A stretch of 64,000 bases of DNA from Bacteroidales bacterium. Lineage in GTDB: Bacteria; Bacteroidota; Bacteroidia; Bacteroidales; WCHB1-69. Within the stretch, counting starts at the first letter, position 1; each line of letters opens with the position of its first letter. The notes beneath the pieces were generated by a model. That model worked only from the letters and a program-made list of their open reading frames with translations, made no database searches and was not told the DNA's origin. Positions 7,129 through 55,725 of the stretch are shown piece by piece. Both the position numbers and the translations under genes were made by a program. The stretch spans positions 691 to 64,690 of the forward strand of contig JAZLHE010000056.1 in the NCBI GenBank assembly GCA_045616665.1, given 5' to 3'.

Positions 7129-7269
7129 AAATTTGTGTTTTTGTTTATAATTTATTGAATACCAATATTTTACAACCGCTATTTAACATTTTCAAAATTG
7201 ATTGCACAAAGTTATAAAAAAATTTTTTTTGTTGTACACTTTTTTTTTATTTTTTTATTTTAAAACATA

Positions 7270-7360
7270 ATTATTGCTTTAGGTCTTGTAAGGAAATTCC
7301 GTTCTCCGCTTTGCGTCAGCGGAATGGAGGTATTTCAACAAGACTAAACGGGATAATCCC
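7270..7360. repeat. Short copy of a MITE-like palindromic intergenic repeat family
   Basis: The ends aattattgctttaggtcttgt / acaagactaaacgggataatccc are imperfect inverted repeats. The inner palindrome is attccg...cggaat. The same termini and core recur at 28704-28973, 42293-42495 and 44778-44978. Confidence 0.6.
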
Positions 7361-7402
7361 AAAATAAATATTTAAACGAATCCATTTTCAAAAAAATATT
7401 AT

Positions 7403-14178: not shown

Positions 14179-14301
14179 GCCTCAAATTTTTAAGACTGCA
14201 AACTTACACAAAAGTTTTGAGATTTTTATGTTGGACAAATAGAAATTATTTGTATTTTTGCACGATAATAATACTATTGAATTTAGATTATTACAACTTT
14301 A

Positions 14302-15560: not shown

Positions 15561-16727
15561 ATGAAAAAAATCAAATTACTTACCTTGACATGCCTCTTGC
15601 TGTCAGTGGTTTTTATGTCTTGTAAAAAAGACGATCCCAAAAAAGAAGATCCTGATACACCAACTTCAGAAGAAACCGTCTATATTATGGGCACATACGG
15701 ATCTGAATCTTTTCTCCTGACGAATGACAAACTAAGCTTTTTCGACAATAATATAGGAAGATTTGGCGCACTTGACATGGCGGTTGCAGACAACGGCGAT
15801 GTCTATGTTGCAGGAGAAGTAAAAGCATTGTCGATAAGTTCCCCATCATCACTGTTATTCAAAAACGGCGTACCTTGCTATGAATATGTCTTTGATCACG
15901 CTTCATTTTGCGGCATTGCGATTGAAGACAATGGCAAGATTGTTCTTGCAGGTTTGCATTTGTCAGATAAATACAGACCCGCCGTGTGGGACGGTACTAC
16001 CGCGACAGATTTGCCTCTTTCTGGTGAAAGCAACATCAATGAATGGCACGTTACATCTATAGATTATAAGGATGGTCACGAACTCATTGTTGGTTTCTCT
16101 TTGAATTTGGATGGCAAATACAATCCATTAGTGTGGGTAGATCGCCAGTTTGTAAGTGTAGATCCTATGAACGGTGCTTCGGCAAAAATCTTTTCCGGCA
16201 CACTGACCAATGGCACCAATTTCAAAATCGCAGGTAATTTTTTGGATGAAGAAGGAAACTACACGGCATACGAATACGATAGTCAGACAGGCGGCACTCA
16301 AATCAATTATCAGTGGGAAAGCTCAAATTTCAGCGTAGTCTATGGAATAGTCAATTCTTACAAGTGGAATAAAACCGAAGCGGAAGGAACCCGCAGTAAC
16401 TATTCTTTAGTAACTGAAGATTACGAGCACTACGCGATAAATCCAACAACTGGAGAACCATACATAGACTCTTGTTATGGTGGATTTTATGTGATGAAAG
16501 ACGGTAGCGTTATGCCGCAAACGATGTACAGGTACCCACAAACCAACACCATCAGCTCTATCATCGACATGTCAATCAACTCCAAAAACCAGCTTTACCT
16601 GGTGGGAAGTTTCTATGACAATGACGAAGGCATCAAGCCTGCCTATTGGGTGGATGGCGTACGCCACATTATTGATCTTGAAGATGGCGTTGCCTCCAGA
16701 ATCATCATCAAACCAGCCCAAAAGTAA
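15561..16727 (+). CDS. Lipoprotein paralog 2
   Basis: The N-terminal ~60 aa match paralog 1 exactly. Differences cluster in short segments (e.g. EVKALSISSPSS versus EVQSAAAGMQPKS). Confidence 0.8.
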   Translation: MKKIKLLTLTCLLLSVVFMSCKKDDPKKEDPDTPTSEETVYIMGTYGSESFLLTNDKLSFFDNNIGRFGALDMAVADNGDVYVAGEVKALSISSPSSLLFKNGVPCYEYVFDHASFCGIAIEDNGKIVLAGLHLSDKYRPAVWDGTTATDLPLSGESNINEWHVTSIDYKDGHELIVGFSLNLDGKYNPLVWVDRQFVSVDPMNGASAKIFSGTLTNGTNFKIAGNFLDEEGNYTAYEYDSQTGGTQINYQWESSNFSVVYGIVNSYKWNKTEAEGTRSNYSLVTEDYEHYAINPTTGEPYIDSCYGGFYVMKDGSVMPQTMYRYPQTNTISSIIDMSINSKNQLYLVGSFYDNDEGIKPAYWVDGVRHIIDLEDGVASRIIIKPAQK

Positions 16728-28497: not shown

Positions 28498-28703
28498 AAC
28501 TGCTCTGTCTTTTAGCATCAAAGTCCTTTTTCGTGGCAACAGATGAAAAATATGGTGCTTTTTGTTTCTAAACCGATAAATATCAATCACTTTGCCAATG
28601 AAGCAACAAAATGATTGTCAATTAAATTCATTAATAATCAGATGGTTATAAGTTAATTTTTTCCATTCTTCTATGGTTTAGCACACAGCAATAAAAAAAC
28701 GAA

Positions 28704-28973
28704 ATTATCCCTTTCTGTCTTGTAGAGAGATTCCTTCGCTACGCTTCGGAATGACGATGCGCTGCACACAAGAAAATGGCGGCGACGGAAAGTAATAACG
28801 CAACAATACTGTCGTGGTGTCGCCGCAGTAATCGCGATTGCGGCGGCATCACACACCGACCCTGATCGACCACCTTGCGCCGCCGCTTCACTATGTTCCC
28901 CGAGTGCACTCGTCATCCAGAGCGGAGCACAGCGGAGTGAAGGGGTCTCAACAAGATTAAACGGGATAATCCC
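28704..28973. repeat. MITE-like intergenic repeat, long copy
   Basis: Left end attatccctttctgtcttgtagagagattcc, right end caacaagattaaacgggataatccc, with a G+C-rich interior. The track ORFs 28671-28916 and 28913-29179 lie across it and look spurious. Confidence 0.6.
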
Positions 28974-29021
28974 GTAAAAAAATTCAAAATCTCACAAATA
29001 AGTGATTTTTGGGAAAAATGT

Positions 29022-29029: not shown

Positions 29030-29123
29030 GCAGAATATAAAGAATTCATTGTTAAATATAAAAACAGTATATAGAAAAATAGAATAACATAGTAATAATC
29101 TGAGCTTTACGCTCTTGTTCTCT

Positions 29124-29276
29124 ACTCCGTAAACGACCAATTTATTTAGTAGGTGAGAATAAGATAGCGGAAGGTTCACGTCTTAGGCGTGAACTGTTTC
29201 GTGCTTATTTACCTACAAGGCTTTGGTCGGCCCACGGAGTGAAATAAGCGACTAAGAAACGGCGAGCGCCTTTTTT
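29124..29276 (+). ncRNA. Candidate structured 5' leader RNA of the MBOAT operon
   Basis: Five nested helices. P1 is actccgt 29124-30 / acggagt 29234-40. P2 is cgaccaa 29134-40 / ttggtcg 29223-29. P3 is gtaggt 29149-54 / acctac 29211-16. P4 is aataag 29158-63 / cttatt 29204-09. P5 is gttcacg 29174-80 / cgtgaac 29188-94. An alternative 8-bp pairing joins gcttattt 29203-10 with aaataagc 29242-49. A T6 run follows at 29271-76. Confidence 0.4.
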
Positions 29277-29325
29277 AGTTGGGAAGAGTTCCAAGAGTAG
29301 GAAGCTTTAAACGACACATTAAACA

Positions 29326-34008: not shown

Positions 34009-34958
34009 CTAATTGCCTGATTTCCGTTCCATATAGTCTCTGAAGGCGTAAAGCGGGATGTTCTCCAACCACGGCTGGTCTTCGTAGTTTTTCATGCTCA
34101 GCCGGATGCCTTTGAGGTCGGGGTTGTTCTCTATGAAGATCTTTAATGATTTCGCCCTGACATTCTCTTCGGCTTTCACCTCCACGGGATACACATTGTC
34201 GTCGAGCTGAATCACGAAGTCGAGTTCTATGCGCGACTTCTCCACGGAATGATAATATACGGGGATGCCGGTGGTGGCGAGTTGCGACTCCACATATACT
34301 TCGGTGAAAGCCCCTTTATACTCCTTGAAGATGTTGTTGCCGACCATCATCTGGCTTGCGGGGATGTCGGCCATTGCGCCCATCAGCCCGACATCGAGGA
34401 TGAAGAGTTTGAAGGCGTTGGCATCTTCATAGAACTTCAGCGGCATCCTGACTGCGTTCACGCAGTTGATTTTATATACGATTCCCGCATCGACAAGCCA
34501 TTGGATTGACTCCTCGAATTCGGAGGCTCTGGCTCCGTGCTTCATAACACCGAAAATGAACTTCTTGTTCTCCTTGGTCAGCTGCGATACGAGGCTCTGC
34601 CACATGCCGCAATGTGATATTCGGGCGCATCTTCGGCCAAGGCCTTCAGCCTTGTCAGCGCAACGGGGCAGTCTTGTATTTCGTCTAAAATAACGAGAGT
34701 GTTGCCGGGGACTATGTCAACATCGGTTATGGCCGATAGACCTTTCAGTAACCTGTCCGCGGACTTCTCCGCCGTAAAAAGCTGACATGCGGCATCGTTT
34801 CGGTCGAAGCTGACAAAGGATATGCTTTTATATTCGTTTTTCCCGAATTCCTTCAGCAGCCATGTCTTGCCAACCTGCCGCGCTCCGAACAGCACTAACG
34901 GTTTCCTGTCTTTAGAAAGTTTCCATTTTATTAAGTCGTTGTATAAATATCGCCTCAT
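34009..34958 (-). pseudogene. Disrupted AAA/DUF4143-type ATPase gene (frameshift plus internal deletion)
   Basis: The 126-aa ORF carries the N-terminal AAA part (GARQVGKTWLL, VILDEIQ, ..HIAACG). The 198-aa ORF carries the C-terminal DUF4143-like part (SQLTKENKKFIFG..). The two are in different frames and overlap at 34578-34605. The combined length is roughly 100 aa short of the intact relative at 32712. Confidence 0.7.
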
Positions 34959-35192: not shown

Positions 35193-35306
35193 AACTCAAA
35201 AAAAACTACTTCCATTTCTCGGCTGTGGAATTTTTATGTATTTTTGCGCCTTGTTTTTGCCTTCAATCGGCAAAAAGTGAAATCACGGATTATTAACCAA
35301 TTTGGA

Positions 35307-36347
35307 ATGAAAGAAAAAAACAACATAGTACAAAGCACGATCGATGCATCTTTTCTTGCTGAAGTGAAGCACATTGTTGAGCAAGGTCGCCAACAAGCAT
35401 ACGCCTCCGTAAGTCAGCTGATGATTGAAACCTATTGGAAAATAGGAGAACGTATTGTTTTGCAAGAGCAAAAAGGATCTAATCGTGCCGAATATGGAAC
35501 TCAACTTATTGCTCAACTTTCAGAGGAGTTGACGCGAACATACGGAAAAGGATTCAGTGGAAGATATTTGAGAGCATTTAGACAGTTTTATCTTGTTGTT
35601 CCTGATTTGGAGATTTGGAAATCGCGATTTCCAAATCTTACTTGGACCCATATTCTTAAAACTTTACGAGTTGAGGATCCTACAGCTGTACGTTGGTATC
35701 TGTCAACAGCTTCACAAGAGATGTGGAGCGTGCGCACACTCGACCGCAATATTTCCACGCAATACTATGAGCGTCATTTTAAGCAACCGCAGTTGGTTGA
35801 AAATACCGAGAATGACAATAAGGTTGACAAATTGGAAATTCTAAAAAACCCAATAATGGCAGAATTTCTTGGATTCAAGCAAAATACCGACTTTACGGAA
35901 ACCGATTTGGAAAAAGGCCTGATTCAGCATCTTCAAGACTTTCTTGTTGAATTAGGCAGGGGATTTGCATTTGTTGCACGGCAACAGCATATTTTCACCG
36001 ATGCCGGTGACTTTTATATCGATTTGGTATTCTACAACTACATCTTGAAATGTTTCGTGCTGATAGATTTGAAAAAAGGTCAGATAACCCATCAGGATGT
36101 TGGGCAAATGGATATGTATGTGCGTATGTACGACGATTTGAAACGCACGGAAGGCGACAACCCCACCATAGGTATAGTACTTTGCAGCGAAACGAGCAAA
36201 GACATTGCACGCTATTCCATATTACGGGATAGCGATAATTTATTTGCCGCTAAATATATGCCCCTAATGCCTACCGAAGAAGAACTTCGCAGGGAGATAG
36301 AGGCTCAAAAAGAATTGTTTAATTTGCAAAATGACAAAATAGAATAA
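35307..36347 (+). CDS. DUF1016/YhcG-family PD-(D/E)XK nuclease-like protein, copy 1
   Basis: The N-terminal region ..AYASVSQLMIETYWKIGERIV..GSNRAEYGTQLI.QLS..L....GKGFS..YLRAFRQFY is typical of YhcG. The C-terminal core is FYIDLVFYNYILKCFVLIDLKKGQITHQDVGQM. A -7 box lies at 35239-35246. Confidence 0.8.
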   Translation: MKEKNNIVQSTIDASFLAEVKHIVEQGRQQAYASVSQLMIETYWKIGERIVLQEQKGSNRAEYGTQLIAQLSEELTRTYGKGFSGRYLRAFRQFYLVVPDLEIWKSRFPNLTWTHILKTLRVEDPTAVRWYLSTASQEMWSVRTLDRNISTQYYERHFKQPQLVENTENDNKVDKLEILKNPIMAEFLGFKQNTDFTETDLEKGLIQHLQDFLVELGRGFAFVARQQHIFTDAGDFYIDLVFYNYILKCFVLIDLKKGQITHQDVGQMDMYVRMYDDLKRTEGDNPTIGIVLCSETSKDIARYSILRDSDNLFAAKYMPLMPTEEELRREIEAQKELFNLQNDKIE

Positions 36348-36375
36348 AAAAGATATTTTAAACTAACATATTATC

Positions 36376-36399
36376 AATCATAGCGTTTGCTATTTGTTC
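36376..36399 (+). repeat. 24-bp direct repeat, copy A (aatcatagcgtttgctatttgttc)
   Basis: Identical 24-mer at 37616-37639. This copy ends 6 nt before ATG 36406. Confidence 0.9.
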
Positions 36400-36405
36400 T
36401 AAATC

Positions 36406-37509
36406 ATGAAAGAAAAAAAGACAGATATTGTTCAAGACGAGATTGGTCGTGCGGATATGCTTGCATCTCGCATTGAGGCACTGATTACGGAAGCACGTAC
36501 CAAAGTCGTTTCGTTTGTGAATACCGCTATGGTATATACCTATTATGAGATAGGACGGTATATCGTTGAAGATGAACAAAATGGAGACAACCGAGCTTCT
36601 TACGGCAAAGAAGTGTTGGAGAATTTGTCGTGCAGACTCACAGATAAATTTGGCAAAGGTTGGTCTGCTGCCAATCTCAGGGCTATGCGTCAATTTTATG
36701 CGGTGTATTCAAAAACGCTAACCACTGGTCAGCAAATTGGCAATGAAAACGCTAACCGTTGGTCAGCAAAATTGACTGATCAAAATATAACACCTGAGTT
36801 TAAATTGTCGTGGACTCATTATCAAATTTTAATGAGAGTTGAAAATCCACAAGCTCGAAGTTTTTATGAAATAGAATGTTATAACCAACATTGGGACAAG
36901 CGTTATCTGCAACGGCAAATTGGCAGCAGTTTGTACGAGCGTTTGGCATTAAGCCGGAACAAAAATGAAATAATCCGTTTGGCCAAAGAAGGTCAAACCA
37001 TAGAGAAACCGTCTGACGTAATAAAAGACCCGATTGTATTGGAATTTATGGGTCTTAAATCCGATGCTTCTTATTCCGAGACATCACTTGAAAGCGCGAT
37101 AATCGGCAAACTGCAACATTTTTTGTTAGAAATGGGCAAAGGATTCCTGTTTGAGGCACGACAGAAAAGATTTTCGTTTGAAGAACGCAATTTTTATGTC
37201 GATTTGGTACTGTACAACAGGCTTTTGCAATGCTATGTGCTGATAGATTTGAAAATGGACGACCTGACGCATCAGGATTTGGGACAGATGCAGATGTATG
37301 TGAACTACTACGACCGGTATGTGAAACAAGATTTCGAGAAGCCGACAATCGGCATTTTGCTGTGTGAACAAAAAGACGATATGCTGGTTGAATTAACATT
37401 GCCAAAAGACGCTAACATTTATGCGCAGCAATATGCACTCTATCTGCCAGACAAAGATCTCCTGCAAAAAAAATTACGGGAATGGATTGATGAGCAAAAC
37501 GAAAATTAA
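36406..37509 (+). CDS. DUF1016/YhcG-family PD-(D/E)XK nuclease-like protein, copy 2
   Basis: Same architecture as copy 1 but strongly diverged: FYVDLVLYNRLLQCYVLIDLKMDDLTHQDLGQM. Confidence 0.8.
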   Translation: MKEKKTDIVQDEIGRADMLASRIEALITEARTKVVSFVNTAMVYTYYEIGRYIVEDEQNGDNRASYGKEVLENLSCRLTDKFGKGWSAANLRAMRQFYAVYSKTLTTGQQIGNENANRWSAKLTDQNITPEFKLSWTHYQILMRVENPQARSFYEIECYNQHWDKRYLQRQIGSSLYERLALSRNKNEIIRLAKEGQTIEKPSDVIKDPIVLEFMGLKSDASYSETSLESAIIGKLQHFLLEMGKGFLFEARQKRFSFEERNFYVDLVLYNRLLQCYVLIDLKMDDLTHQDLGQMQMYVNYYDRYVKQDFEKPTIGILLCEQKDDMLVELTLPKDANIYAQQYALYLPDKDLLQKKLREWIDEQNEN

Positions 37510-37615
37510 CCATCTTTGCAGTCACAAATCAGATACTGCGATTCTTATTAAATCATTAAACAACAAACAATTAACAAAAACAGAAAGATAAACATTCAAC
37601 TGATATATTATAATA

Positions 37616-37639
37616 AATCATAGCGTTTGCTATTTGTTC
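37616..37639 (+). repeat. 24-bp direct repeat, copy B
   Basis: Perfect match to 36376-36399. It lies 176 nt upstream of the methyltransferase ATG. Confidence 0.9.
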
Positions 37640-37815
37640 GAGAAACTCTGAAACGTAGGAAATTTCAAAAGTTGATACCGAGGACAGATTGCGAATGTTC
37701 ACGCTTACGTGGGCATTCTTGTCTGTATCAATCGGTTTCCTACGACCGCAGAGTTTGGGCAAGATTAGCCCACGTTCTGTGTTCGTAGGGAACAAGTGCC
37801 AGACGCTAAAAGCAA

Positions 37816-38919
37816 ATGCGTATGGCAAACAAGAATTTATCGCAGGCAAAAGCGAAAAAAAACGATGAGTTTTATACTCAGTATGCGGACATTCAAAATG
37901 AAATAAACGCCTATTTGGAATATAATCCGGATGTGTTTCGAGACAAAACTATCCTTCTTCCGTGTGACGATCCCGAATGGTCAAACTTTACAAAATTCTT
38001 TGCACAGAATTTTGAAAATTTCGGCTTGAAAAAGCTGATTAGCACAAGTTATGCTATAGAAAGCAAAAACATAGACCTGAACTGGCAGCCAACTTTGTTT
38101 GAACAGGAAAATCCCAACTTTGATTTGGATAAGACCAAAATCAAAGGTAAGATTTTCACGCTTGAACGTGACACCAATGCCAGTGGAAAGATTGACATTG
38201 AAGATTTGGAATGGCAATACTTAGAAGGCGACGGCGACTTCCGCAGTGATGAAGTAAAGGCCTTGCGAGACGAAGCCGACATAATCATCACCAATCCACC
38301 GTTTTCGTTGTTTACATCTTTTTTGATGTGGATTATGGAAGCAGATAAAAAGTTTCTGATTTTAGGTAATATGAATGCTATTGCCTACAAAGAAATTTTT
38401 CCAAAGATTAAGGAGAATAAAATGTGGCTGGGTGTAAAAAGCGGTGCCAGAGAATATTTGAAACCCAATGGTGGTATCCAAAAAATGGGCAACACCTATT
38501 GGTTTACAAATCTTGAGCATGGGCGTCGTCATCAACCTATGAAACTGATGACATTGGATGATAATATCAAGTACAGCAAGCACAAAGAAGTAAAAAATGT
38601 TGGTTATAAAAGGTATGTGAATTTTGATGCTATTGAGATTCCCAAATCTGATGCTATACCGAGTGATTACAATGGTGTGATGGGTGTCCCTATTTCTTGG
38701 CTGGACAAATATTGTCCAGAACAATTTGAGATTATTGGAATGGCCAATGGTGGAAATCTTGGCATAGAATGCGGCGTTAGTTCAAATTTATCCGAAGAAG
38801 ATTGTAAAAAGCTATTTAAAGAGGATAAAGGTTTTAGACGAGGAAAATTGTGCTATAGAAATGATGATGGAAAGTTAATCAGCCTTTTCGCAAAAATATT
38901 AATCCGTAAAAAACAATAA
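37816..38919 (+). CDS. EcoRI-family N6-adenine DNA methyltransferase
   Basis: The N-terminal signature [21 protein letters not shown]....[19 protein letters not shown] resembles the EcoRI_methylase family. Catalytic motif IV is IIITNPPFS. Confidence 0.8.
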
Positions 38920-38920
38920 A

Positions 38921-40078
38921 ATGAAAACGACATTAAAAGAGTACACAATTCAGGAAGTTTGTGAAGGTTTCTTATACAACGAATTAGAAGGCAAAGGTTT
39001 GTTCGGCTTGGGTGGTCAATTGACAATCCAGCCCGAATACCAAAGAAACTACATTTACAATGATGGCAAAAAGGACGTGGCCGTTATAGAATCCGTGCTG
39101 AAAGGTTATCCACTGGGGCTCATCTATTTCAACAAAGTAGATGACAGGCTTGAAGTGCTGGACGGGCAACAACGCATCACTTCCTTGGGTCGGTTTGTCA
39201 CCGGAAAGTTTGCCATTAAAGACGCCAACGGAATGGAACAGTACTTTTCAAGTTTGGCATCGGACAAACAACAACTTATCAACAACTCAAAACTGTTGGT
39301 TTATATTTGTGAAGGAACCGAAACAGAAATAAAAGAGTGGTTCAAGATCATCAATATTGCCGGTGTTCCATTGAAACCGCAAGAGCTGTTGAACGCGGTA
39401 TATTCCGGGCCGTTTGTAACCAAAGCAAAAGAAGTGTTTAGCAATTCACAAAACGCAAACATCCAGAAATGGAGTGCATTCATCAAAGGTGTTGCCAACC
39501 GCCAAGACTTTTTGGAATGCGCCTTGGATTGGGTGAGCAAAGGAAATATTGAAAATTATATGGCCACCCATCGTTCGGATACGGACATCAATGAAATGGA
39601 AACCTATTTCAATAGCGTGATTGGTTGGATTGACAGTGTGTTTCCAACAGTTAAAAAAGAGATGTGCGGTTTGGAGTGGGGTCGTCTGTATGAAACGTAT
39701 CATAAAAATCCGTACAATAAAATTAAAGTCGGTTCAGAAGTTGACCGATTATATGCAGACGAATATGTTGCCAACAAAAAAGGAATATTTGAATATGTTT
39801 TGGGCGGCTGCGCTGATGATAGGTTGTTGGAAATTCGTGTTTTTGACAATGCAACAAAGAATACCGTATATCATAAACAGACAACCGATGCCATTGCGAA
39901 AGGCATATCCAACTGCCCGTTGTGTGCTATGGGTACGAATGCTAACAGAACAAGAATCTGGAAGTTGAATGAAATGGATGCCGATCACGTCACTGCTTGG
40001 AGCAAAGGTGGCAGCACCTCCATCGGAAATTGTGAAATGCTTTGCCAAACGCACAACCGAGCCAAAGGAAATAAATAA
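38921..40078 (+). CDS. DUF262 (ParB-like, DGQQR) domain protein with C-terminal HNH nuclease
   Basis: QPEYQRNY and [13 protein letters not shown] are DUF262 hallmarks. The C-terminus CPLC....[33 protein letters not shown] is an HNH motif. The start is 1 nt after the methyltransferase stop. Confidence 0.8.
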
Positions 40079-40092
40079 AGAGAATGTTCTTT

Positions 40093-40122
40093 CCCCTCGT
40101 CATCCGCGAGGGGCGTTTTTTT
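40093..40122 (+). terminator. Rho-independent terminator after the MTase / DUF262-HNH pair
   Basis: 7-bp stem cccctcg / cgagggg followed by T7. Confidence 0.75.
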
Positions 40123-40143
40123 GCTTTTCCGCTCCTCAAAATC

Positions 40144-40422
40144 TTATTTGAACAAATCAGAATGAGAACCCGTGCGGAAAAGATTCAAAATTTGCAGCTC
40201 TTCATCGGATTTGCTATACAACAACAACCAATCCGGCTGAATATGGCATTCTCGAACACCATCTTTGTTTCCGACAAGAATATGATCACGATTGGCTGGA
40301 GAAAGGGGTTCGTCGTTGGCAAGCCGAAATACTATTTCGTTTAATTTTTCTTCTGGCAGTCCTCTTTTACGCGCCAATTTCAAGTCCTTCTTGTATTGAG
40401 TTGAAATTACAATTGTTCTCAT
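40144..40422 (-). CDS. yafQ: Type II toxin, YafQ/RelE family
   Basis: 92 aa. RDHILVGNKDGVRECHIQPDWLLLY....L.L.RTGSHSDLF matches the YafQ signature. Confidence 0.85.
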   Translation of the reverse strand: MRTIVISTQYKKDLKLARKRGLPEEKLNEIVFRLANDEPLSPANRDHILVGNKDGVRECHIQPDWLLLYSKSDEELQILNLFRTGSHSDLFK

Positions 40423-40625
40423 TGTATTGCTTTCAGGTATTCTTCAAAACTATTGCAACGGGTGCCGCCACCATTTTTTATTTCTTCAATGGCCTGCGCG
40501 GTGGCATCATTGAATGAGGTCTCCTGCTTAATGAAAATACCCGAATTTATCAGACTGTTTATTAGTTTTCTGATAGTTTCGTTACTCGCATCATAACTTA
40601 CTGTTATCGTTTCCATTTCTCTCAA
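40419..40625 (-). CDS. Putative cognate antitoxin of the YafQ-like toxin
   Basis: A 65-68 aa ORF overlapping the toxin start by 4 nt (ATGA). Family not recognised. A minus-strand tacttttg box lies at about 40640-40647. Confidence 0.55.
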   Translation of the reverse strand: MREMETITVSYDASNETIRKLINSLINSGIFIKQETSFNDATAQAIEEIKNGGGTRCNSFEEYLKAIQ

Positions 40626-40849: not shown

Positions 40850-41595
40850 TTAATACAGCAAACCGAACATCCAAAGAGGAATGCGATGACCATGACCAAG
40901 TTCAGCACCTGCCACCGCCAAATAGCTGTCAGGAAGGTCTTTAATCTGCTCAGAACTTTTGCTTCCGCCTCCGACTTCAAACAGATATTTGCCGTCAACA
41001 AGAAAGTCTCCTTTTGGAGGATAATGCACTTTGGCCACTGCGGAAAGTTGGTTTAAGAAAAATGTCTCACGCAAGGTGCCCACATTCGCCATCGGTGAAA
41101 GTGCATACATCAAGTTGGTGTTACCCACATAAAGTTTGTCGGGTTTGGACATCCGCTTTAAGGATTTGCTTTCAGAACTCAGCAACGCCATCAAACCTGC
41201 TCGTTCAAGCAGGTCCAACATTTTTAATCCTTGATCCCTTGATGTGTTCAATTGGGCATATACTTCGTTCATTTTGGGTGTTTGAGGCACTTTGTCAGCC
41301 AAAATCATCAACATTTGTTTGATTTTTTGAATTGTAGCGTATGAAACATCTTCAATACTTGGCAAATCAGACTCCAATACCTGTTTAATCATACTTTGTA
41401 ACCTATCTGGGAATCCATCTCCTTCCTCAGAGAAAAAGGGATAATAGCCAAATCGGAGATATGACTCGAAAAGAGGAAGAACTTTTATCGAGGATGATAT
41501 ATCAAGTGCTATGGTCAAATGTTTTTCCAACAAATTAGGAAGAGATATTTTTCCCAGTTTGTAATGACAGCTGAACGCCAAGAATTCCCTGAATA
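40850..41595 (-). pseudogene. 5'-truncated AAA-family ATPase gene remnant
   Basis: Only a C-terminal portion is plausible (..FGYYPFF....LESDLP....KPDKLYVGNTNLMYAL...FFLNQL....HRIPLWMFGLLY*). No Walker A is present. The N-terminal ~45 aa of the track ORF overlap the exonuclease gene and look like read-through. Confidence 0.55.
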
Positions 41596-41600
41596 GATTC

Positions 41601-42098
41601 CTATTCCAAAATCCGCAACGCGATGGCGGCACATGCCTCGGCATCCGCCAACGCGTGATGATGATGCTCCAGATTATAGCCGCAAGCCGCGGAAACAGTA
41701 TGTAACTGCAGGTTCTCCAAGGTTTTGCCAAAATGCCTTTTGGCCGCTCTATAGGTACAATAAAACTTATAATCAGGATAATCCATTTGATATAACTTAA
41801 AAACCGCCTTCAAACAGCTCTCATCAAACTGGCTGTTGTGTGCCACCATCGGCAATCCCTCAATTTTTGGAGCTACCCGCGCCCATACTTTCGGGAAAAT
41901 CGGGGCATCGTCGGTATCTTCATTCGACAAGCCGTGTACCCGCTGACAATAATAATTATAAAAATTAGGCTCAGGTTTGATCAAACTATAAAAACTGTCC
42001 ACCACCACGCCGTCACGCACTACCACTACGCCCACACTGCACACACTACTCGGTGCGAAATTGGCAGTCTCAAAATCAATGGCAGCAAAATCCTTCAT
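41601..42098 (-). CDS. DEDDh 3'-5' exonuclease (DnaQ/epsilon-like), stand-alone
   Basis: 165 aa. Exo I AIDFETAN, Exo II VAHNSQFDESCL, Exo III HHALADAEACA. A minus-strand tatttttg box lies at about 42160-42180. Confidence 0.88.
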   Translation of the reverse strand: MKDFAAIDFETANFAPSSVCSVGVVVVRDGVVVDSFYSLIKPEPNFYNYYCQRVHGLSNEDTDDAPIFPKVWARVAPKIEGLPMVAHNSQFDESCLKAVFKLYQMDYPDYKFYCTYRAAKRHFGKTLENLQLHTVSAACGYNLEHHHHALADAEACAAIALRILE

Positions 42099-42286
42099 TT
42101 TCTATCGTCATTTTTAATTTACAAAGATACAACATAAAATAATACTATGTGAATTATCTTGTGCAAAAATAGCACAAGGGTGTGCCCTTTTGGGGCACAC
42201 GACTGAAAGACGTGGCATCGCTTTCGCTAATTTCTGAGACTCAAGATTTCACACCAAACATGCCCATCTGCACTAACCACCTGAAA

Positions 42287-42532
42287 AACCAAATTATCCC
42301 TTTAAGTCTTGTAATGAGATTCCGCCTTCCGCTTCGCTTCGGCGGAATGGCGGTGAATTAGGCGGCTCCACTCACATACTTTTACCTCTTCCGTTGCGCC
42401 GCCGCCCTGACGTAGGTATGACTCGTCGCCATTCCGATGTTTCCAACGTATGGTGGAAACACCGGAATCTCAATATGCTTAAACGGGATAATTCCGTGAT
42501 TTTTTATATCTCAAAAATTTTGTGTAAGTTTG
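42287..42532 (+). repeat. ~245-bp direct repeat, left copy (MITE-like element plus promoter box)
   Basis: Near-identical to 44771-45016 (I saw only a handful of mismatches or indels). It contains the inverted termini attatccctttaag / cttaaacgggataat and ends in the TAnnTTTG box taagtttg (42525-32). Confidence 0.9.
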
Positions 42533-42552
42533 CTTTCAAAATTAAATGCGAT

Positions 42553-44079
42553 ATGATTATAATTATTATAGTTGTTGTTTTTATAATTTTCCCATATCTT
42601 AAAAATAAATACAAGGAAAACCATTCAAAAGAAGAAAGCATTGCGGCAAGAAAAAATGAGACTAACAGGCTTGATTATGAGACTGAACGAAAGCATTTAA
42701 AACGATTAGGCATTTGCTTTTTGATACTTCTGTTTTTGGGAACAAGTGTTTTTATCGGTATTATTTCTGAATTAAAATCATCTTTTGAGATTATTTTACT
42801 GGTTGACTTCTTCTATTTCATTCCTACGATTCTATTAGTGAAAATAGCTCGCAAAATGCAACAATTGATTTTTCTTGACGAACATCGTCACCTTGATGAA
42901 TCGCAAAATGAAAAAGAAGCTCAGCAAAATGTTATTGAAAAAAAATATAAACCACTATCCGAAATAGCAGATAGCATTATTGTTTGCAAGCAAGAGAATG
43001 AATTAACGACTTGTTTATTTAACGAACAGGAATTAAAGGAATTTTATCCACACACACAAACGTGGAGAATTAAAAATTGGCATGCAGATGAATTTGATTA
43101 TGTGAAAAAGGGGGAAGAATTACTCACCTTGGAAGCATTATACGATTCCAACCATCATTTTTCAATAAAAGCTCCATCTTCTGGATTTTTACACATAAAA
43201 CAATTAAATTTTCATGATTATCATCAAGATGATTTGATTTGTGAAATATATAGCAATATGGATTCTCTTATTGATACATTATCTGTTAATGAAATCAAAG
43301 TTGTAAAAGACGATTTTTCAGAAGACATTATTATCAGAGGAGAGAAAATGGCGGGTTCGCAAAATGGTTTTATCATTGGCGACATAAGTATTAATTTTGA
43401 AAACAGAATGGGAGAGTATGGTTTGATAGTAAAGTTTACAAGAAAAACAATAAACATTAGAAAAAATGACACACTTCAATTATTATTTGATAACGGAACA
43501 ACTATCTCATTAAATACCACTTCAAGTCCAATTAAATGCGTTAACTGCAAAGAAGATTCCGTTGTTAGATTTGGGTTGAATGCAGAGCATATAAATTTAT
43601 TTAAAGATTCATATCTGTTAAAATGGCAAATTAAATCTAGTGATAGTGAAATTATCGGAAGAAATGAAATTCATCACCAAGATAAGGGAATAGGTTTAGT
43701 GTTTAATGATTTCATTATTAAATTCGAGAATGAGGTTAAGAATAATATTCCAGAATCAGAAATAATAAAATGCAAACAAACTTTTGAACCCGAAAAACAA
43801 GAAAACGCATTAGAATGCTGTTATGTGTACTTAATGAAAGACTGCGCAAATCATTTCTTTAAAATAGGCATTTCCAACAATCCAAAATATCGTGAAAAGA
43901 CTCTTCAAAGTGAAAAACCTACAATAGAACTGATATGTAACAAGAAATTTCCGTCTCGGAAAATGGCTAGGGCTATTGAATCTGCATTACACACAACATT
44001 TTCAAATCAACACATTCGTGGCGAATGGTTTGACTTGAATGAAAATGACGTAGCTGAGGTAATCAATACTCTTTCCTAA
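42553..44079 (+). CDS. Membrane-anchored protein with C-terminal T5orf172 (GIY-YIG-like) domain
   Basis: I prefer ATG 42553, downstream of the repeat-borne promoter. Three N-terminal hydrophobic helices. A central segment resembles a lipoyl/biotinyl barrel-sandwich hybrid (W...DYVKKGEELLTLEA....SIKAPSSGFLHI). The C-terminus CYVYLMKD..HFFKIGISNNPKYREKTL.....IRGEWFDL matches T5orf172/MUG113. Confidence 0.7.
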   Translation: MIIIIIVVVFIIFPYLKNKYKENHSKEESIAARKNETNRLDYETERKHLKRLGICFLILLFLGTSVFIGIISELKSSFEIILLVDFFYFIPTILLVKIARKMQQLIFLDEHRHLDESQNEKEAQQNVIEKKYKPLSEIADSIIVCKQENELTTCLFNEQELKEFYPHTQTWRIKNWHADEFDYVKKGEELLTLEALYDSNHHFSIKAPSSGFLHIKQLNFHDYHQDDLICEIYSNMDSLIDTLSVNEIKVVKDDFSEDIIIRGEKMAGSQNGFIIGDISINFENRMGEYGLIVKFTRKTINIRKNDTLQLLFDNGTTISLNTTSSPIKCVNCKEDSVVRFGLNAEHINLFKDSYLLKWQIKSSDSEIIGRNEIHHQDKGIGLVFNDFIIKFENEVKNNIPESEIIKCKQTFEPEKQENALECCYVYLMKDCANHFFKIGISNNPKYREKTLQSEKPTIELICNKKFPSRKMARAIESALHTTFSNQHIRGEWFDLNENDVAEVINTLS

Positions 44080-44172
44080 ATCTTACTTATCAATAACATC
44101 GGATGGTGTGTGACTCACTTTCGTTAATTCGTTGTCAAAATATAAAGTAAAATCCTGCAAAACCTTGTTTCC

Positions 44173-44583
44173 CTATGCATTATTTCCACGTGCACTTATT
44201 TCCATTTTTTTGATTGAATAAGTTTTGTTTACAGTATTATCTATAATATTTTGGAAACTGTCAGCAATAGCTAATTGTTTTTCAGCTTCTGCCATATAAA
44301 TGTCATATTCTGTCGTACCGACACCATATATATCAGCCATATCCATTTGATGATTTGCTTCCCTAACAGCAGACTCCATATCAATAGCTATAAGCCATTT
44401 TTCATCAAATTCATAGGTGTAATCTTGCAAATTACTACATTTGACGATTTCAATTTTTCCATCATTGGAATTTTCTTCTAGATAATTTTTTACCATTTTT
44501 TTTGCCTTAGAAGCATCTGAACAGCTAACAAAAACAATTGCAATGGCAGCAAAACTCAATAACAGTATCTTTTTCATACTCAA
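44173..44583 (-). CDS. Small lipoprotein, unknown function
   Basis: Signal peptide plus lipobox (IAIVFVSC). A minus-strand tatttttg box lies just upstream, at about 44588-44600. Confidence 0.65.
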   Translation of the reverse strand: MSMKKILLLSFAAIAIVFVSCSDASKAKKMVKNYLEENSNDGKIEIVKCSNLQDYTYEFDEKWLIAIDMESAVREANHQMDMADIYGVGTTEYDIYMAEAEKQLAIADSFQNIIDNTVNKTYSIKKMEISARGNNA

Positions 44584-44770
44584 CTATTTTTTTGCAAAAA
44601 TACAAAAAAACTAACAAATTTCACAACAAACGACAAAAAAAGAAAAAACAAATCAGAAAATTTTCATTTCCACAGAATTGAAATTTTCAACTTCCTCGCA
44701 TAATCTTGCATATTATTTGTTTCTGACAAAAGACAACATAAAGTGTTGATTACAAGCTTGTTGTTTAATG

Positions 44771-45016
44771 AACCAAAATTATCCCTTTAAGTCTTGTAAT
44801 GAGATTCCGCCTTCCGCTTCGCTTCAGCGGAATGGCGGTGAATTAGGCGGCTCCACTCACATACTTTTACCTCTTACGTTGCGCCGCCCCCTGACGTAGG
44901 TATGACTCGTCGCCATTCCGATGTTTCCAACGTATGGTGGAAACACCGGAATCTCAATATGCTTAAACGGGATAATTCCGTGATTTTTTATATCTCAAAA
45001 ATTTTGTATAACTTTG
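44771..45016 (+). repeat. ~245-bp direct repeat, right copy (carries the miaB promoter box)
   Basis: See the left copy. It ends in taactttg (45009-16), 4 nt before the miaB ATG. Confidence 0.9.
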
Positions 45017-45020
45017 CAAT

Positions 45021-46340
45021 ATGAAAAATTTATTTATCGAAACATACGGTTGTCAAATGAATGTTGCTGATAGTGAGGTGGTTGCATCTATCTTATCAGC
45101 AGAATACCAAATTTGCGACAACATCAAGAACGCCGACCTCATCCTTTTAAACACTTGTTCTGTTCGCGATCACGCCGAACAGCGAATCAGAAAACGCCTT
45201 AACGAATTAGGAGCCCTGAAAAAGAAAAAGGCCGGACTTCAAATCGGTTTGCTCGGTTGCATGGCCGAGCGTGTCAAGGAAAAGCTGCTTCACGAAGAAA
45301 CAGCATTGGACTTCATCGCCGGACCCGACGCTTACCGCAGCCTGCCTGCTCTAATACAAGAATCTGCCTTTGGCAAAACCGCCTTCAATGTTTTGCTCTC
45401 CACCGAAGAAACATACGACGACATTGAGCCCATTCGCTACGACACCAACGGCATTTCGGCATTTATCTCCATCATGCGCGGCTGTAACAATTTTTGCAGC
45501 TATTGCGTCGTGCCTTATACCCGCGGTCGCGAGCGCAGCCGCAGCTCTGAAACCATCATTCGCGAAGCACGGCAATTAATAGATCAAGGCTATAAGGAAA
45601 TCACTTTGTTGGGACAGAATGTCAATTCATATTGCTCGAATGAAAACGGCGAAGTGGTCAATTTCGCCAAATTGCTCGAAAAAGTGGCCTTGCTTTCGCC
45701 GCAAGTACGTGTGCGTTTTGCTACCTCCCATCCCAAAGACATTTCCGATGAGCTCATCGAAACCATCGCCAAATACGACAACTGCTGCAAATACATTCAT
45801 CTGCCCGTCCAGGCAGGAAGCAACGTGATGCTCAAACGGATGAATCGCGTCTATACCCGCGAATACTACCTGGAACGCATCGCCACCATCAAACGACTGA
45901 TTCCCGATTGTGCCATTGCCACAGACATTATCGCCGGCTTCAGCGGCGAAACCGAAGAAGACCACCAGGCCACTTTGTCGCTGATGAAAGAGGTGGGCTA
46001 CTGCGCCGCCTATATGTTCAAATACTCTGAACGCGACTGCACGATGGCTGCCAAACGCTTCCCCGACGACATTCCCGACGAGGTCAAGGGCCGCCGCCTG
46101 GAAGAAATCATCGCACTGCAACAAGAGTTGTCATTGGCACACAACCAAAAAGACATAGGCAAAACTTTTGAAGTGCTGGTGGAAGGCGCCTCTAAACGCG
46201 ATGCCAACGAATATTTCGGTCGCAATAGTCAAAATAAAGTCATCATATTCCCTAAAGGAAATGCCCAAATCGGCAAATACGTAATGGTGACCGTGCAATC
46301 CTGCTCACCCGCTACGCTGAAAGGCGTTTTGGCCAAATAA
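45021..46340 (+). CDS. miaB: tRNA-2-methylthio-N6-dimethylallyladenosine synthase MiaB
   Basis: 439 aa. N-terminal ETYGCQMNVADSE, radical-SAM cluster GCNNFCSYCVVPYTRGRERS, C-terminal TRAM domain. Confidence 0.95.
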   Translation: MKNLFIETYGCQMNVADSEVVASILSAEYQICDNIKNADLILLNTCSVRDHAEQRIRKRLNELGALKKKKAGLQIGLLGCMAERVKEKLLHEETALDFIAGPDAYRSLPALIQESAFGKTAFNVLLSTEETYDDIEPIRYDTNGISAFISIMRGCNNFCSYCVVPYTRGRERSRSSETIIREARQLIDQGYKEITLLGQNVNSYCSNENGEVVNFAKLLEKVALLSPQVRVRFATSHPKDISDELIETIAKYDNCCKYIHLPVQAGSNVMLKRMNRVYTREYYLERIATIKRLIPDCAIATDIIAGFSGETEEDHQATLSLMKEVGYCAAYMFKYSERDCTMAAKRFPDDIPDEVKGRRLEEIIALQQELSLAHNQKDIGKTFEVLVEGASKRDANEYFGRNSQNKVIIFPKGNAQIGKYVMVTVQSCSPATLKGVLAK

Positions 46341-46348
46341 AACAAGCT

Positions 46349-47575
46349 ATGCTGCTCATCCTGTCACCCCAAAATTCACCCCGACTTGACTATGTTTGCC
46401 ACGTCATTTTCAAGCTGATACTGAATTTGGATTATGCCATTACACAGAATGAGCAAACTTACCAGCAACACCAGGATCTTAAATTACGCTACCTTCCAAA
46501 GTCCAATATCCTGTTTGAAAATGACATCTGCCCGCAGGATGAAACTCTGCTTTTGCAGGACAAACCGGCCCTGGCATTTTTCCTGTTAAGCAATTACGAA
46601 GAATACCTCCCCGACTGCCCCCGCGACCAACATGGAAGAATCATTCACGAAAAATCTTTTGTAGTCAGGCACAAGCTGCACAACCAAGCCGTTGTTCACC
46701 GTATTGCACTGAAATACAAAGAAATACTTGCAAAGCAAAAGGCTTCTTTTCAATGGAAAGAACGAAAATATAAGTTTATTCCCACCTTTGACGTGGATAT
46801 TGCTTACGCATTCAAAGGCAAGAGTTTCGGGCATTTTTGCGGTGCATTGTTCAAATCACTGCTGAAAGGCAAAATTCAAAATGCCAAAAACATCCTCAAG
46901 GCTAAATTTGACAAAAATTTTGATGATCCTTACGATTTGTATGATGCGGAAAAAGAACTCTGCATCCGGCATCAACTCAAACCCACCTACTTTGTCCTTA
47001 CTTCCAGACGCAGCCAGTACGACCGTAACATATCTCCACAAACATCTGCTTTTGATCAGTTGATTCATCAATTGCAATCCTTTGCCAATATCGGTTTGCA
47101 CACATCATATTATGCTGAAAATCTGAATGAGATTCTTCATCAGAAAAAAATATTGGAAATCAAAACGCAAAAACGCATTTTTTCATCACGGCAGCATTTT
47201 TTGAAGGAAAAAATGCCACAAACCTTCCAAAATCTGCATGCCGCCGGCATTACGGACGACTACAGTCTCGGCTTTTACGACCGCATCGGTTTCCGCAACG
47301 GAATGTCCATTCCATTTCCCTTTTTCGACCTGAAAAAGGGAGAAAAGACAAAACTCATCCTTCATCCCTTGTTATTTATGGATTCCGCCGCCATCCGGTC
47401 CGATTTTTCGGAAAAAACATATTGGAATGACTTGCAATCCCTTATTCAAGAAGTGCAACTGGTTCAAGGAGAGATGATTGCCCTTTGGCATAACAACTTT
47501 ATGCCCAAAGGTTCAAAAGAAGAGGCATTGTTCAAAGCCAGTTTCAATAAAATGGCCCAAGGCACCCTTATTTAG
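46349..47575 (+). CDS. Hypothetical protein, possibly polysaccharide-deacetylase-like (NodB-fold)
   Basis: 408 aa. The blocks PTFDVDIAYAF, IGLHTSYY and RQHFL....GITDDYSLGF.DRIGFRNGMSIPFPFFD resemble a deacetylase-like family as I remember it. Not verified. Confidence 0.4.
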   Translation: MLLILSPQNSPRLDYVCHVIFKLILNLDYAITQNEQTYQQHQDLKLRYLPKSNILFENDICPQDETLLLQDKPALAFFLLSNYEEYLPDCPRDQHGRIIHEKSFVVRHKLHNQAVVHRIALKYKEILAKQKASFQWKERKYKFIPTFDVDIAYAFKGKSFGHFCGALFKSLLKGKIQNAKNILKAKFDKNFDDPYDLYDAEKELCIRHQLKPTYFVLTSRRSQYDRNISPQTSAFDQLIHQLQSFANIGLHTSYYAENLNEILHQKKILEIKTQKRIFSSRQHFLKEKMPQTFQNLHAAGITDDYSLGFYDRIGFRNGMSIPFPFFDLKKGEKTKLILHPLLFMDSAAIRSDFSEKTYWNDLQSLIQEVQLVQGEMIALWHNNFMPKGSKEEALFKASFNKMAQGTLI

Positions 47576-54756: not shown

Positions 54757-54957
54757 TGTTCAATTTAGTATTATGTTAGTCAACGTTTGTAATCGGATGC
54801 AAAGATAGCATAATTTTTTATCAATCCGCATATTCATTAAAAAAATTATCCCTGTCAACATCAATATGTTACAAAATTATAATTTATATATTAGCAATTA
54901 ATAGTTAAATTATAGATTTAAAATGGGAGTTTTGGCGGTTGATAGTGCGTTTTGCGG

Positions 54958-55061
54958 CAACCACCCCGGCCTACGGCCACCCATGAGACCTACGGTCGCC
55001 AGCCTATTCCGTGCGGAAACAACCACCCCGGCCTACGGCCACCCCTCCTTAAAAGGAGGGG
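54958..55061. repeat. 25-bp perfect direct repeat pair plus CCCCTCC/GGAGGGG hairpin
   Basis: caaccaccccggcctacggccaccc occurs at 54958-54982 and 55020-55044. The hairpin arms are at 55042-48 and 55055-61. Confidence 0.8.
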
Positions 55062-55391
55062 AATTATACGGCATCTTCGCTTCCTTCTCGACGTTACATT
55101 CTCACAGATGCCGATTATTGTTTTTTATACAAAACAATTTTCTACACATTTTGTTTATTATAAAAAACACTTTTTTTATGAAAGAGAATGATTTTTTGGG
55201 AGAATCACCACTTTTAGTTTTGTAAATAGATTCCGTCTTTGCTGTTCGCCGCCGCCCATCTGGTTTTTCCCTACCGGCAAGCCCCGCCATTCGGCAAGCG
55301 ACCGGAGGGAGCACAGCGGAACCTCATTCCACATCGTTCATTGACCTGGATGTGGCATCTCTCCGAGATGCCTGGGACCTACTCCTCATCC

Positions 55392-55480
55392 CGCCCCAGA
55401 TTACGCTGGCGCTTACGTCACGCCCCAGATTACGCTGGCGCTTACGTCACGCCCCAGATTACGCTGGCGCTAATCTGGGG
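55392..55480. repeat. 29-bp tandem repeat (about 3 units) ending in a 10-bp perfect hairpin
   Basis: The units cgccccagattacgctggcgcttacgtca start at 55392, 55421 and 55450 with no spacers. The last unit forms ccccagatta (55452-61) / taatctgggg (55471-80). Confidence 0.85.
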
Positions 55481-55725
55481 TTATGGAGATACGACCTCTT
55501 CGAGGTCTGTTGTGTACCTCAGACTCCTTTTTATATTTCAACCCATTGGTTTACGGCATTTTGGCTTCCCTCACGTCTAACCCCTCTACCCTAAACCCTA
55601 TACCCTACTTCGGCACCAAGTGAAGTAAAGCGGATAGCACGACGGCACAGCAAGGTGTCGGACCGCCCTAAAAACAAAAAAACACGGATTATTTACTCCC
55701 GACAAATTCGTCATTTCTATTTTTA

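Follow-up and report, generated by a model that had tools for sequence, protein, structure and literature searches.

A low-G+C cassette between duplicated MITE-plus-promoter segments upstream of miaB encodes a candidate T5orf172-type defence nuclease

In this work, a 64,000-nt stretch of DNA (the window) was analysed, which corresponds to positions 691-64,690 of contig JAZLHE010000056.1 from the metagenome-assembled genome (MAG) of Bacteroidales bacterium GCA_045616665.1. The subject is a 2.2-kb cassette inserted directly upstream of miaB. It consists of two convergent genes, a 508-aa open reading frame (ORF) on the plus strand, whose product ends in a T5orf172 domain, and the gene of a 134-aa lipoprotein on the minus strand. 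The cassette lies between two direct repeats, each composed of an element resembling a miniature inverted-repeat transposable element (MITE) and of a copy of the miaB promoter. On balance, we favour the explanation that the cassette was inserted recently through the MITE and the promoter, and that it encodes a stand-alone nuclease of conflict or defence. With moderate confidence, we propose that the gene has a domain architecture that is new among the T5orf172 nucleases and encodes a candidate single-gene defence protein; for its carriage on a cassette that lacks a recombinase and enters through repeated host elements, the confidence in the exact route is lower. The nuclease activity, the membrane topology, the anti-phage role and the recombination route are all inferred. 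The features of the locus, in window coordinates, are as follows.

41601-42098, minus strand: RNase_T/DnaQ-like exonuclease gene (Pfam), conserved in relatives to the left of miaB
42200-44994, no strand: stretch missing from the relatives' naive exonuclease-miaB sites (BLAST against contigs L225-L238)
42291-42496, plus strand: left MITE-like copy with terminal inverted repeats (TIRs) AATTATCCCTTTAAG and CTTAAACGGGATAATT, containing no ORF
42497-42533, plus strand: left promoter segment (P'), with the box TAAGTTTG at 42525-42532, 20 nt 5' of the ATG
42553-44079, plus strand: gene of the 508-aa protein (Pfam, AlphaFold model AF2, Foldseek, hydropathy, invariant residues)
44080-44172, no strand: 93-bp spacer separating the convergent genes
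44173-44577, minus strand: gene of the 134-aa orphan lipoprotein, lipobox FVSC, with its own TAnnTTTG box upstream
44609-44775, no strand: 167-bp cassette-specific spacer from the lipoprotein promoter region to the right repeat
44776-44980, plus strand: right MITE-like copy
44981-45017, plus strand: right promoter segment (P), the native miaB promoter, with the box TAACTTTG at 45009-45016
45021-46340, plus strand: miaB (tRNA methylthiotransferase; Pfam UPF0004, Radical_SAM, TRAM), the host gene 3' of the insertion

The repeats and the insertion of the cassette

An initial annotation, made from the sequence alone, had described near-identical direct repeats of ~245 bp around the cassette, and these were confirmed at 42291-42533 (243 bp) and 44776-45017 (242 bp). 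At 98% identity, the two copies differ by one indel and at four substituted positions. Exactly two occurrences of a 40-nt repeat core were counted in the 64 kb, against none in shuffled sequences. The DNA between the repeats (42534-44775) has a G+C content of 30%, compared with 42% for the window and 47-49% for the exonuclease and miaB genes. Naive sites were read in seven sequences from two contig sets (14 contigs listed), including the NCBI MAG GCA_024400755.1. In these congeneric relatives, whose MiaB is 90-98% identical at the protein level and 85-90% at the DNA level, the exonuclease gene is followed by a spacer of 205-236 bp and by miaB; the miaB promoter box is present, and both the MITE and the cassette are absent. 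The BLAST homology between the window and the relatives' contigs ends at 42199 and resumes at 44995. Farther relatives (MiaB 89% identical in protein and ~75% in DNA) also lack the cassette and have a peptidase gene directly 5' of miaB. The capture of the cassette upstream of miaB, which had been proposed, is borne out by these cassette-free exonuclease-miaB sites, by the foreign composition of the cassette and by its occurrence at a second locus. The empty site had, however, been expected to carry one repeat copy, and the empty sites found carry none.

The same cassette was observed in other samples. A unitig from SRR25429146 (L001) carries a cassette that is 99.8% identical to that of the window, and it ends where k-mers (assuming k = 31) become common to both repeat copies, which corroborates both cassette-repeat junctions. 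In this unitig, a 281-bp deletion between 15-nt repeats removes the promoter and the 5' end (~48 codons) of the lipoprotein gene, while the nuclease gene is intact and the last 75 bp (44701-44775) of the 167-bp spacer are retained. In SRR21151011 (L224), a 99% identical cassette lies at another chromosomal locus, downstream of an acetyltransferase gene, and the naive form of this second locus is seen in the relative L235. The 167-bp spacer (44609-44775) is absent from L224. Its MITE copy is only ~80% identical to that of the window and stands upstream of the promoter variant GTGTAAGTTTGC; precisely where this MITE ends on the right, the sequence becomes 100% identical to that of the window. 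The cassette does not encode a recombinase. Because of the naive relatives and the 99% identical copy at a second locus, we regard the insertion of the cassette as recent and the cassette as mobile. It was also observed that a terminator-like hairpin 3' of the acetyltransferase gene (L224 2395-2480, L235 6434-6491) is duplicated on both sides of the cassette in L224, and that a truncated MITE from a different subfamily adjoins the second hairpin copy (compare L021 2530-2562).

Each repeat copy is made up of a 206-bp MITE and ~37 bp of promoter DNA. The MITE is short and non-coding, has TIRs of 15-16 bp (AATTATCCCTTTAAG and CTTAAACGGGATAATT) with extended pairing, and folds into a hairpin that is long and branched (z-score -4.8 on one strand and -6.0 on the other). 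No RNA family was assigned to the repeat by Rfam, either at gathering thresholds over the whole window or at permissive thresholds over 42150-45150, and an exact match to the repeat interior was absent from viral contigs. The element is multi-copy, with four to five copies or fragments in the window, including diverged copies at 7268-7362 and 28703-28977 and a fragment at ~55203-55239. The interiors of the two diverged copies differ (~95 bp and ~275 bp), all the extra copies are intergenic, and a TAnnTTTG-like box lies 55-65 nt downstream of each of the two. Furthermore, in MAGs of uncultured Bacteroidales from the rumen and the horse gut, the TIR pattern matches 59 loci, most of them with a single TIR match and six with two oppositely oriented matches. 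A filled and empty pair was found as well, since L235 has a MITE at 16099-16315 where the window (~52113) is empty, and this L235 copy is flanked by a short ATAGA(AAA) target duplication. At either MITE copy of the miaB locus, no target-site duplication is recognisable. The TIRs, the dispersed copies, the polymorphism and the short duplication at the L235 copy together indicate that the repeat element belongs to a genuine MITE-like transposable family, dispersed and polymorphic between relatives, in line with the element with inverted termini that had been noted in each repeat.

Beyond the MITE, both copies continue into promoter DNA with a Bacteroidetes-type TAnnTTTG box, TAAGTTTG (42525-42532) on the left and TAACTTTG (45009-45016) on the right. 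The right segment is homologous to the DNA upstream of miaB in MITE-free genomes, with the homology beginning at 44990-44995, and it carries the variant TATAACTTTGC of the MITE-free relatives, which supports the earlier assignment of a promoter box to each repeat and of the right copy to miaB. The left segment carries the variant GTGTAAGTTTGC, which is also found with the L224 cassette. With at most one or two differences, a promoter box of 26 nt (ATCTCAAAAnTTTTGTnTAAnTTTGC) recurs at 14198-14223 (minus strand), 42508-42533 (plus) and 44992-45017 (plus), and none is expected by chance. The first of these is 25/26 identical, lies upstream of a 779-aa ORF (11839-14178, minus strand) and has no adjoining MITE; promoters of this type are evidently frequent in the genome. 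Because the identity of the two copies runs past the end of the MITE into the native miaB promoter, the repeat is best read as a segmental duplication of the MITE together with the native miaB promoter, and not as the product of two transpositions. The start of miaB itself is ambiguous (45021 or 45057), and the gene calls of many relatives begin at Met13 (427-428 aa). The first ATG of miaB is only 4 nt past the TAnnTTTG box, so a near-leaderless mRNA would be expected.

We hypothesize that a resident-type MITE and the native miaB promoter (243 bp) were duplicated around the incoming low-G+C cassette by homologous recombination, either of the Campbell type or anchored by homology, through the MITE-plus-promoter segment. 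The dispersed MITE copies would act as portable homology for the movement of cassettes. Because the MITE-plus-promoter segment is duplicated, a promoter would be left for the incoming gene and for miaB alike. This is probably the most likely route, transposition and site-specific recombination being less likely. A composite transposon was considered and rejected, since the flanks ..GAAAAACC and TGATTTTTT.. share nothing and the repeat exceeds the MITE by 37 bp. Likewise, a target-site preference of the MITE was rejected as the explanation of the common MITE-promoter junction, the right flanks of the other copies being unrelated. Several points nevertheless weigh against the homologous route. 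A single crossover with a donor carrying the ~80% identical MITE predicts a divergent right copy, which is not seen, so that one has to invoke either gene conversion or a donor whose MITE is near-identical. An intermediate allele with a single repeat copy was not found, nor was a circular form. The insertion in L224 is bracketed by a different local repeat of 47-52 bp, the terminator-like hairpin. Finally, the window comes from a MAG contig, and a mis-assembly through the 243-bp repeat keeps a small residual probability.

The last point leads to the reading that the repeat-cassette-repeat order is an assembly artefact, or that it arose from two independent MITE insertions, and this we consider very improbable. 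The contig is metagenome-assembled, the repeats exceed most assembly k-mers and the MITE is multi-copy, all of which would favour an artefact. However, the copies differ at five positions no more than 120 bp apart, so k-mers of ~120-141 should link each copy to its own flanks, and independent Logan unitigs show the cassette-repeat junctions on both sides. Two independent transpositions, for their part, cannot explain the 37 bp of identity past the end of the MITE into the promoter.

The 508-aa protein and its family

The C-terminal T5orf172/GIY-YIG-like domain that had been recognised in the 508-aa protein stood up to both profile and structure searches. At aa 424-506, Pfam gives MUG113 (1e-13, 52 bits, cut-off 22.3) and T5orf172 (1e-10, 42.2 bits, cut-off 20), and the modelled domain superposes on viral T5orf172 proteins with a root-mean-square deviation (RMSD) of 2.6-2.9 Å. 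T5orf172/MUG113 matches were obtained in 70 of 70 relatives, and the residues Y426, K437, I438, G439, R447, E476, H480, R489 and E491 are invariant in the alignment of the 70 homologues. The invariant Y, KIG, R and E are presumably catalytic, by analogy with I-TevI-type enzymes, and the invariant residues fit an active GIY-YIG-type site. The AF2 models are confident, with a pLDDT of 85 when the entire protein is modelled and of 93 for the segment of aa 240-415. They show three N-terminal helices in the transmembrane (TM) region at aa 1-98, a barrel at ~143-233, a beta domain at ~247-372, two linker helices at 378-411 and the T5orf172/MUG113 domain at 423-507. Three N-terminal TM helices had been proposed. 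Three hydrophobic segments were indeed found (aa 1-15, 52-72 and 78-98), but the first is short, so two to three TM helices are counted. The charge distribution suggests that the C-terminal part is cytoplasmic.

The barrel has the barrel-sandwich hybrid fold of biotinyl and lipoyl domains (Foldseek probability 1.0, TM-score 0.6-0.68 over ~66 aligned residues, with BCCP and lipoyl domains as matches), and Pfam Biotin_lipoyl matches were obtained in 17 of the 70 relatives. The absence of the modifiable lysine, reported earlier, also holds, in that the window protein reads LEALYDS at the barrel hairpin and the corresponding columns are variable or gapped across the family. Since the cofactor lysine is missing, the barrel is likely to be a scaffold or an interaction module and not a carrier. 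For the middle beta domain, an IalB-like homology was not accepted (TM-score ~0.45, RMSD ~7 Å), and there was no confident structural match.

A word-indexed search gave 634 related clusters. Among the 120 best matches, most of those that cover the query only in part do so over its C-terminal two thirds, as judged by the matched residue ranges. A single-sequence search with aa 135-420 against 1.84 billion proteins matched only 39 representatives at E <= 0.001, and thus the middle region evolves fast. Only one of 293 matches in viral contigs covers the full module. In 50,697 phage records the full module was absent and the eight matches concerned the nuclease domain only, and a plasmid collection gave no match to the protein. 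No conserved neighbour gene was present across 80 metagenome loci, and the second-largest neighbour cluster looks like an antisense ORF inside the gene, judging by its coordinates and low-complexity sequence. A full-text literature search found no paper that combines T5orf172 or MUG113 with lipoyl or integron.

Many copies of the family are bracketed by direct repeats of 100-230 bp, some of them in long arrays. These repeats end in ...GTT and begin after ...AAC, with complementary, cassette-specific inverse core sites, which is the signature of integron attC sites. In a scripted test, GTTRRRY/RYYYAAC sites were found to flank the ORF in 15 of 66 evaluable loci, ten of them with perfect 10-mers, against 4.5% in a shuffled-pairing control. 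We therefore classify at least 10-15 of the 66 evaluable metagenome loci as canonical integron cassettes. One such array is that of L209 1-15811 (Ga0209692_10001288) and L208, an integron-type array with at least 12 repeats of ~200 bp ending in ...AAACGTT. All cassettes of the L209 array are co-oriented, and one carries AbiLi/AbiLii and another the T5orf172-family gene. For attC sites, the L209 and L208 repeats are of unusual length, and they include a segment that resembles a promoter. The flanks of the window cassette gave no inverse core sites in the same scripted test, which places it outside the integron cassettes. In addition, no attC-type sequence was seen by eye in the 93-bp spacer (44080-44172), no repeat array was found by repeat and ORF scans of 41000-46500, and there was no integrase among the ORFs scanned from 29.3 to 47.6 kb.

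These results bear on the reading that the MITE hairpins are the recombination sites of an integron-like, structure-specific system and that the cassette was inserted site-specifically at the miaB MITE. The element-cassette-element layout resembles attC-cassette-attC, the element forms a long hairpin, true integron cassettes exist among the distant homologues of the gene, and the cassette begins exactly at the right end of the MITE in both known contexts. We nonetheless consider this reading quite improbable, and the window repeat was rejected as an attC site, because the GTTRRRY/RYYYAAC core sites are absent at the window cassette and the other MITE copies of the window, like that of L235 (16099-16315), are solitary and intergenic. 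The filled and empty pair shows a transposon-like duplication, and most of the 59 collection loci have a single TIR match, the six with two having them in opposite orientation. A crossover at the end of the element would leave the 37 bp of repeat identity beyond it unexplained. Moreover, no integrase is nearby among the ORFs scanned from 29.3 to 47.6 kb, and the cassette consists of a convergent gene pair in which either gene has a promoter of its own. Homologous recombination through the MITE-plus-promoter segment accordingly remains the route that we prefer.

Function of the cassette

If the 508-aa protein serves as a defence nuclease, it would be anchored at the inner membrane by its N-terminal helices, the rest of the chain being cytoplasmic. 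Sensing or regulation would fall to the lipoyl-like barrel without its lysine and to the beta domain, and the GIY-YIG-type T5orf172 domain would cut nucleic acid once an infection triggers it. Both a defence effector and a phage-derived moron had been envisaged for this gene. A candidate defence role is favoured because the full module is near-absent from viruses and because the family recurs in integron cassettes and beside AbiL, SIR2, restriction-modification (RM) and toxin-antitoxin (TA) genes, whereas a moron is unlikely in view of the near-absence of the full module from viral and phage data. The neighbours scored include AbiLi/AbiLii in the L209 array, a SIR2-domain gene of defence type (L188), an AbiTii-like gene (L174) and a type III RM system (L145), and TA genes are also among the neighbours of the family.

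Some results count against a defence role of the kind proposed. The argument for it is indirect, being one of guilt by association. A hydrophobic N-terminus is present in 25 of the 70 homologues and lacking in 45, and so membrane anchoring cannot be central to the mechanism; it appears to be optional in the family, and the membrane tethering first emphasised is not a family trait. In PADLOC-DB 2.0, the only match was PDC-S57 (E = 0.007), through the nuclease domain alone, which does not place the protein in a known system. In addition, T5orf172 proteins of phages are reported to act as homing endonucleases or regulators (PMC10448857, PMC8096241).

The gene could accordingly be a selfish, free-standing element of the homing-endonuclease type, which would cut naive sites and be copied with the cassette during repair, the repeats being by-products and the host gaining nothing. 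Phage T5orf172 genes are reported to act as homing endonuclease genes at recombination boundaries (PMC10448857). The cassette occurs at two loci without a recombinase gene of its own, and it moves between related genomes at 99% identity. We consider this reading unlikely, since no recognisable DNA-binding domain was found and the N-terminal two thirds of the protein consist of TM helices, the lipoyl-like barrel and the beta domain. The two insertion loci are unrelated and lack the common target that would be expected of a homing gene, and homing does not create 243-bp target duplications. Furthermore, the full module is almost absent from phages, and many relatives are integron cassettes, which are moved by an integrase.

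An equally unlikely reading is that the protein is a toxin or a nuclease outside defence, acting in competition, DNA uptake or membrane-associated DNA processing, with the lipoprotein perhaps as its immunity protein or partner. The small convergent lipoprotein gene noted at first was confirmed (44173-44577, minus strand, 134 aa, with the lipobox ..FVSC). The two genes travel together in both the window and L224 and are equally low in G+C, and the N-terminus of the 508-aa protein is membrane-associated, all of which would suit this reading. However, only two clusters of the lipoprotein occur among 5.8 billion proteins, which makes it an orphan, and it is absent from all 80 other loci of the family. 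In L001, its promoter and ~48 first codons are lost and the nuclease gene is intact. For these reasons the lipoprotein is treated as a passenger, and not as an obligatory partner or antitoxin. The 508-aa protein, moreover, has no secretion signal or toxin-delivery domain, and its predicted nuclease domain would be cytoplasmic, to judge from the charge distribution. A stand-alone conflict or defence nuclease is the function we prefer.

In that case the protein would be a compact one-gene system with an unusual sensor, which combines a cofactor-less lipoyl-like barrel and a fold without confident structural match. The family is spread through the integron arrays and defence islands of many environments, and yet it is absent from PADLOC-DB 2.0, the one defence catalogue consulted. 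The locus would also be a natural example of how foreign, promoter-poor DNA is domesticated, with the newcomer and the essential miaB both likely to stay expressed, and the dispersed MITE copies may give a recombinase-free cassette a means of moving. The most far-reaching possibility joins two claims, namely that the T5orf172/lipoyl-like family is a new and widespread single-gene anti-phage system and that the MITE hairpins are landing pads for cassettes, through portable homology or in an attC-like manner. We regard the conjunction as a long shot. It would mean that promoter-equipped defence cassettes are shuffled between loci and genomes in an integron-like economy. To our knowledge, integrons are rarely reported in this phylum.

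Surroundings of the locus and comparison with known systems

The cassette is located at the border of a variable island that comprises RM, TA and nuclease genes. The island (35244-40625) contains two tandem YhcG/DUF1016 PDDEXK paralogues, an EcoRI-like adenine methyltransferase, a DUF262(GmrSD_N)-HNH endonuclease (PADLOC REase_II, 1.7e-86) and a YafQ toxin preceded by a small antitoxin-like ORF. The block of ~28.5-40.7 kb that includes it has only short matches in the relatives L235 and L237. The DUF4143/AAA_14 ATPase genes at 34009-34958 and 40850-41731 (both on the minus strand) look split or truncated. A 126-aa and a 198-aa ORF jointly correspond to one ATPase, and a 293-aa ORF with a weak partial DUF4143 match overlaps the exonuclease gene. 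An inverted repeat, GTGTGCCCTTTTGGGGCACAC, at 42160-42200, 5' of the exonuclease start codon, is kept in all relatives and could be a regulatory or terminator-like hairpin. The window spacer at 42200-42290 (91 bp) is unrelated to the naive spacer of the relatives, in which CCTATTAC(C/T)-like units are repeated in tandem a varying number of times (L225-L237; for example, L236 1170-1265). Exact-protein look-ups gave no match for MiaB (439-aa and 427-aa forms), the exonuclease or the lipoprotein, and conspecific contexts were found by way of cluster members. Elsewhere in the window, a G+C-rich non-coding region at 54930-55700, upstream of a 1254-aa ORF, contains three tandem CCCCAGATTACGCTGGCGCTTACGTCACG units at ~55395-55470 and a repeated ACCACCCCGGCCTACGGCCACCC. 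At 29060-29300, 5' of an MBOAT gene, there is a long leader-like region with several hairpins, such as GGTTCACGTCTTAGGCGTGAAC, and no Rfam family was matched in it at the gathering score.

Among known systems, the repeat element resembles bacterial MITEs and MITE-flanked units in being short, non-coding, bounded by TIRs, multi-copy and polymorphic, and its L235 copy shows a short target duplication. It differs from a composite MITE-flanked unit in that no target duplication surrounds the pair and in that the repeat unit extends into the native promoter. As for the protein, the C-terminal domain of ~85 residues, with its invariant motif residues, is shared with the phage T5orf172 homing endonucleases and with the ICP1/PLE nucleases. 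However, the phage proteins match only this nuclease domain, to which the window protein adds the TM helices, the lipoyl-like barrel and the beta domain, and they are viral, whereas the full module of the window type is cellular. The barrel has the same barrel-sandwich hybrid fold as the biotinyl and lipoyl carriers, a fold that is also a structural module in membrane-fusion proteins, but the hairpin lysine that carries the cofactor is missing in the window protein. PDC-S57 gives a weak match to the T5orf172 part of the window protein and of 11 of the 70 relatives. This match aligns only residues 424-507 (profile positions 7-93 of 212), and the window protein is not a member of PDC-S57. A parallel in organisation is offered by cassettes of sedentary chromosomal integrons that encode single-gene defence proteins, among them Epona, which joins an Mrr_cat nuclease to a holin-like domain with two TM helices (bioRxiv 10.1101/2024.07.02.601686). 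Like Epona, the window protein would combine TM helices and a nuclease in one protein, and its relatives occur in integron arrays, some of which hold AbiL. Unlike Epona, it has a nuclease fold of the GIY-YIG type and other putative sensor domains, and the window copy lies outside an integron and has no attC.

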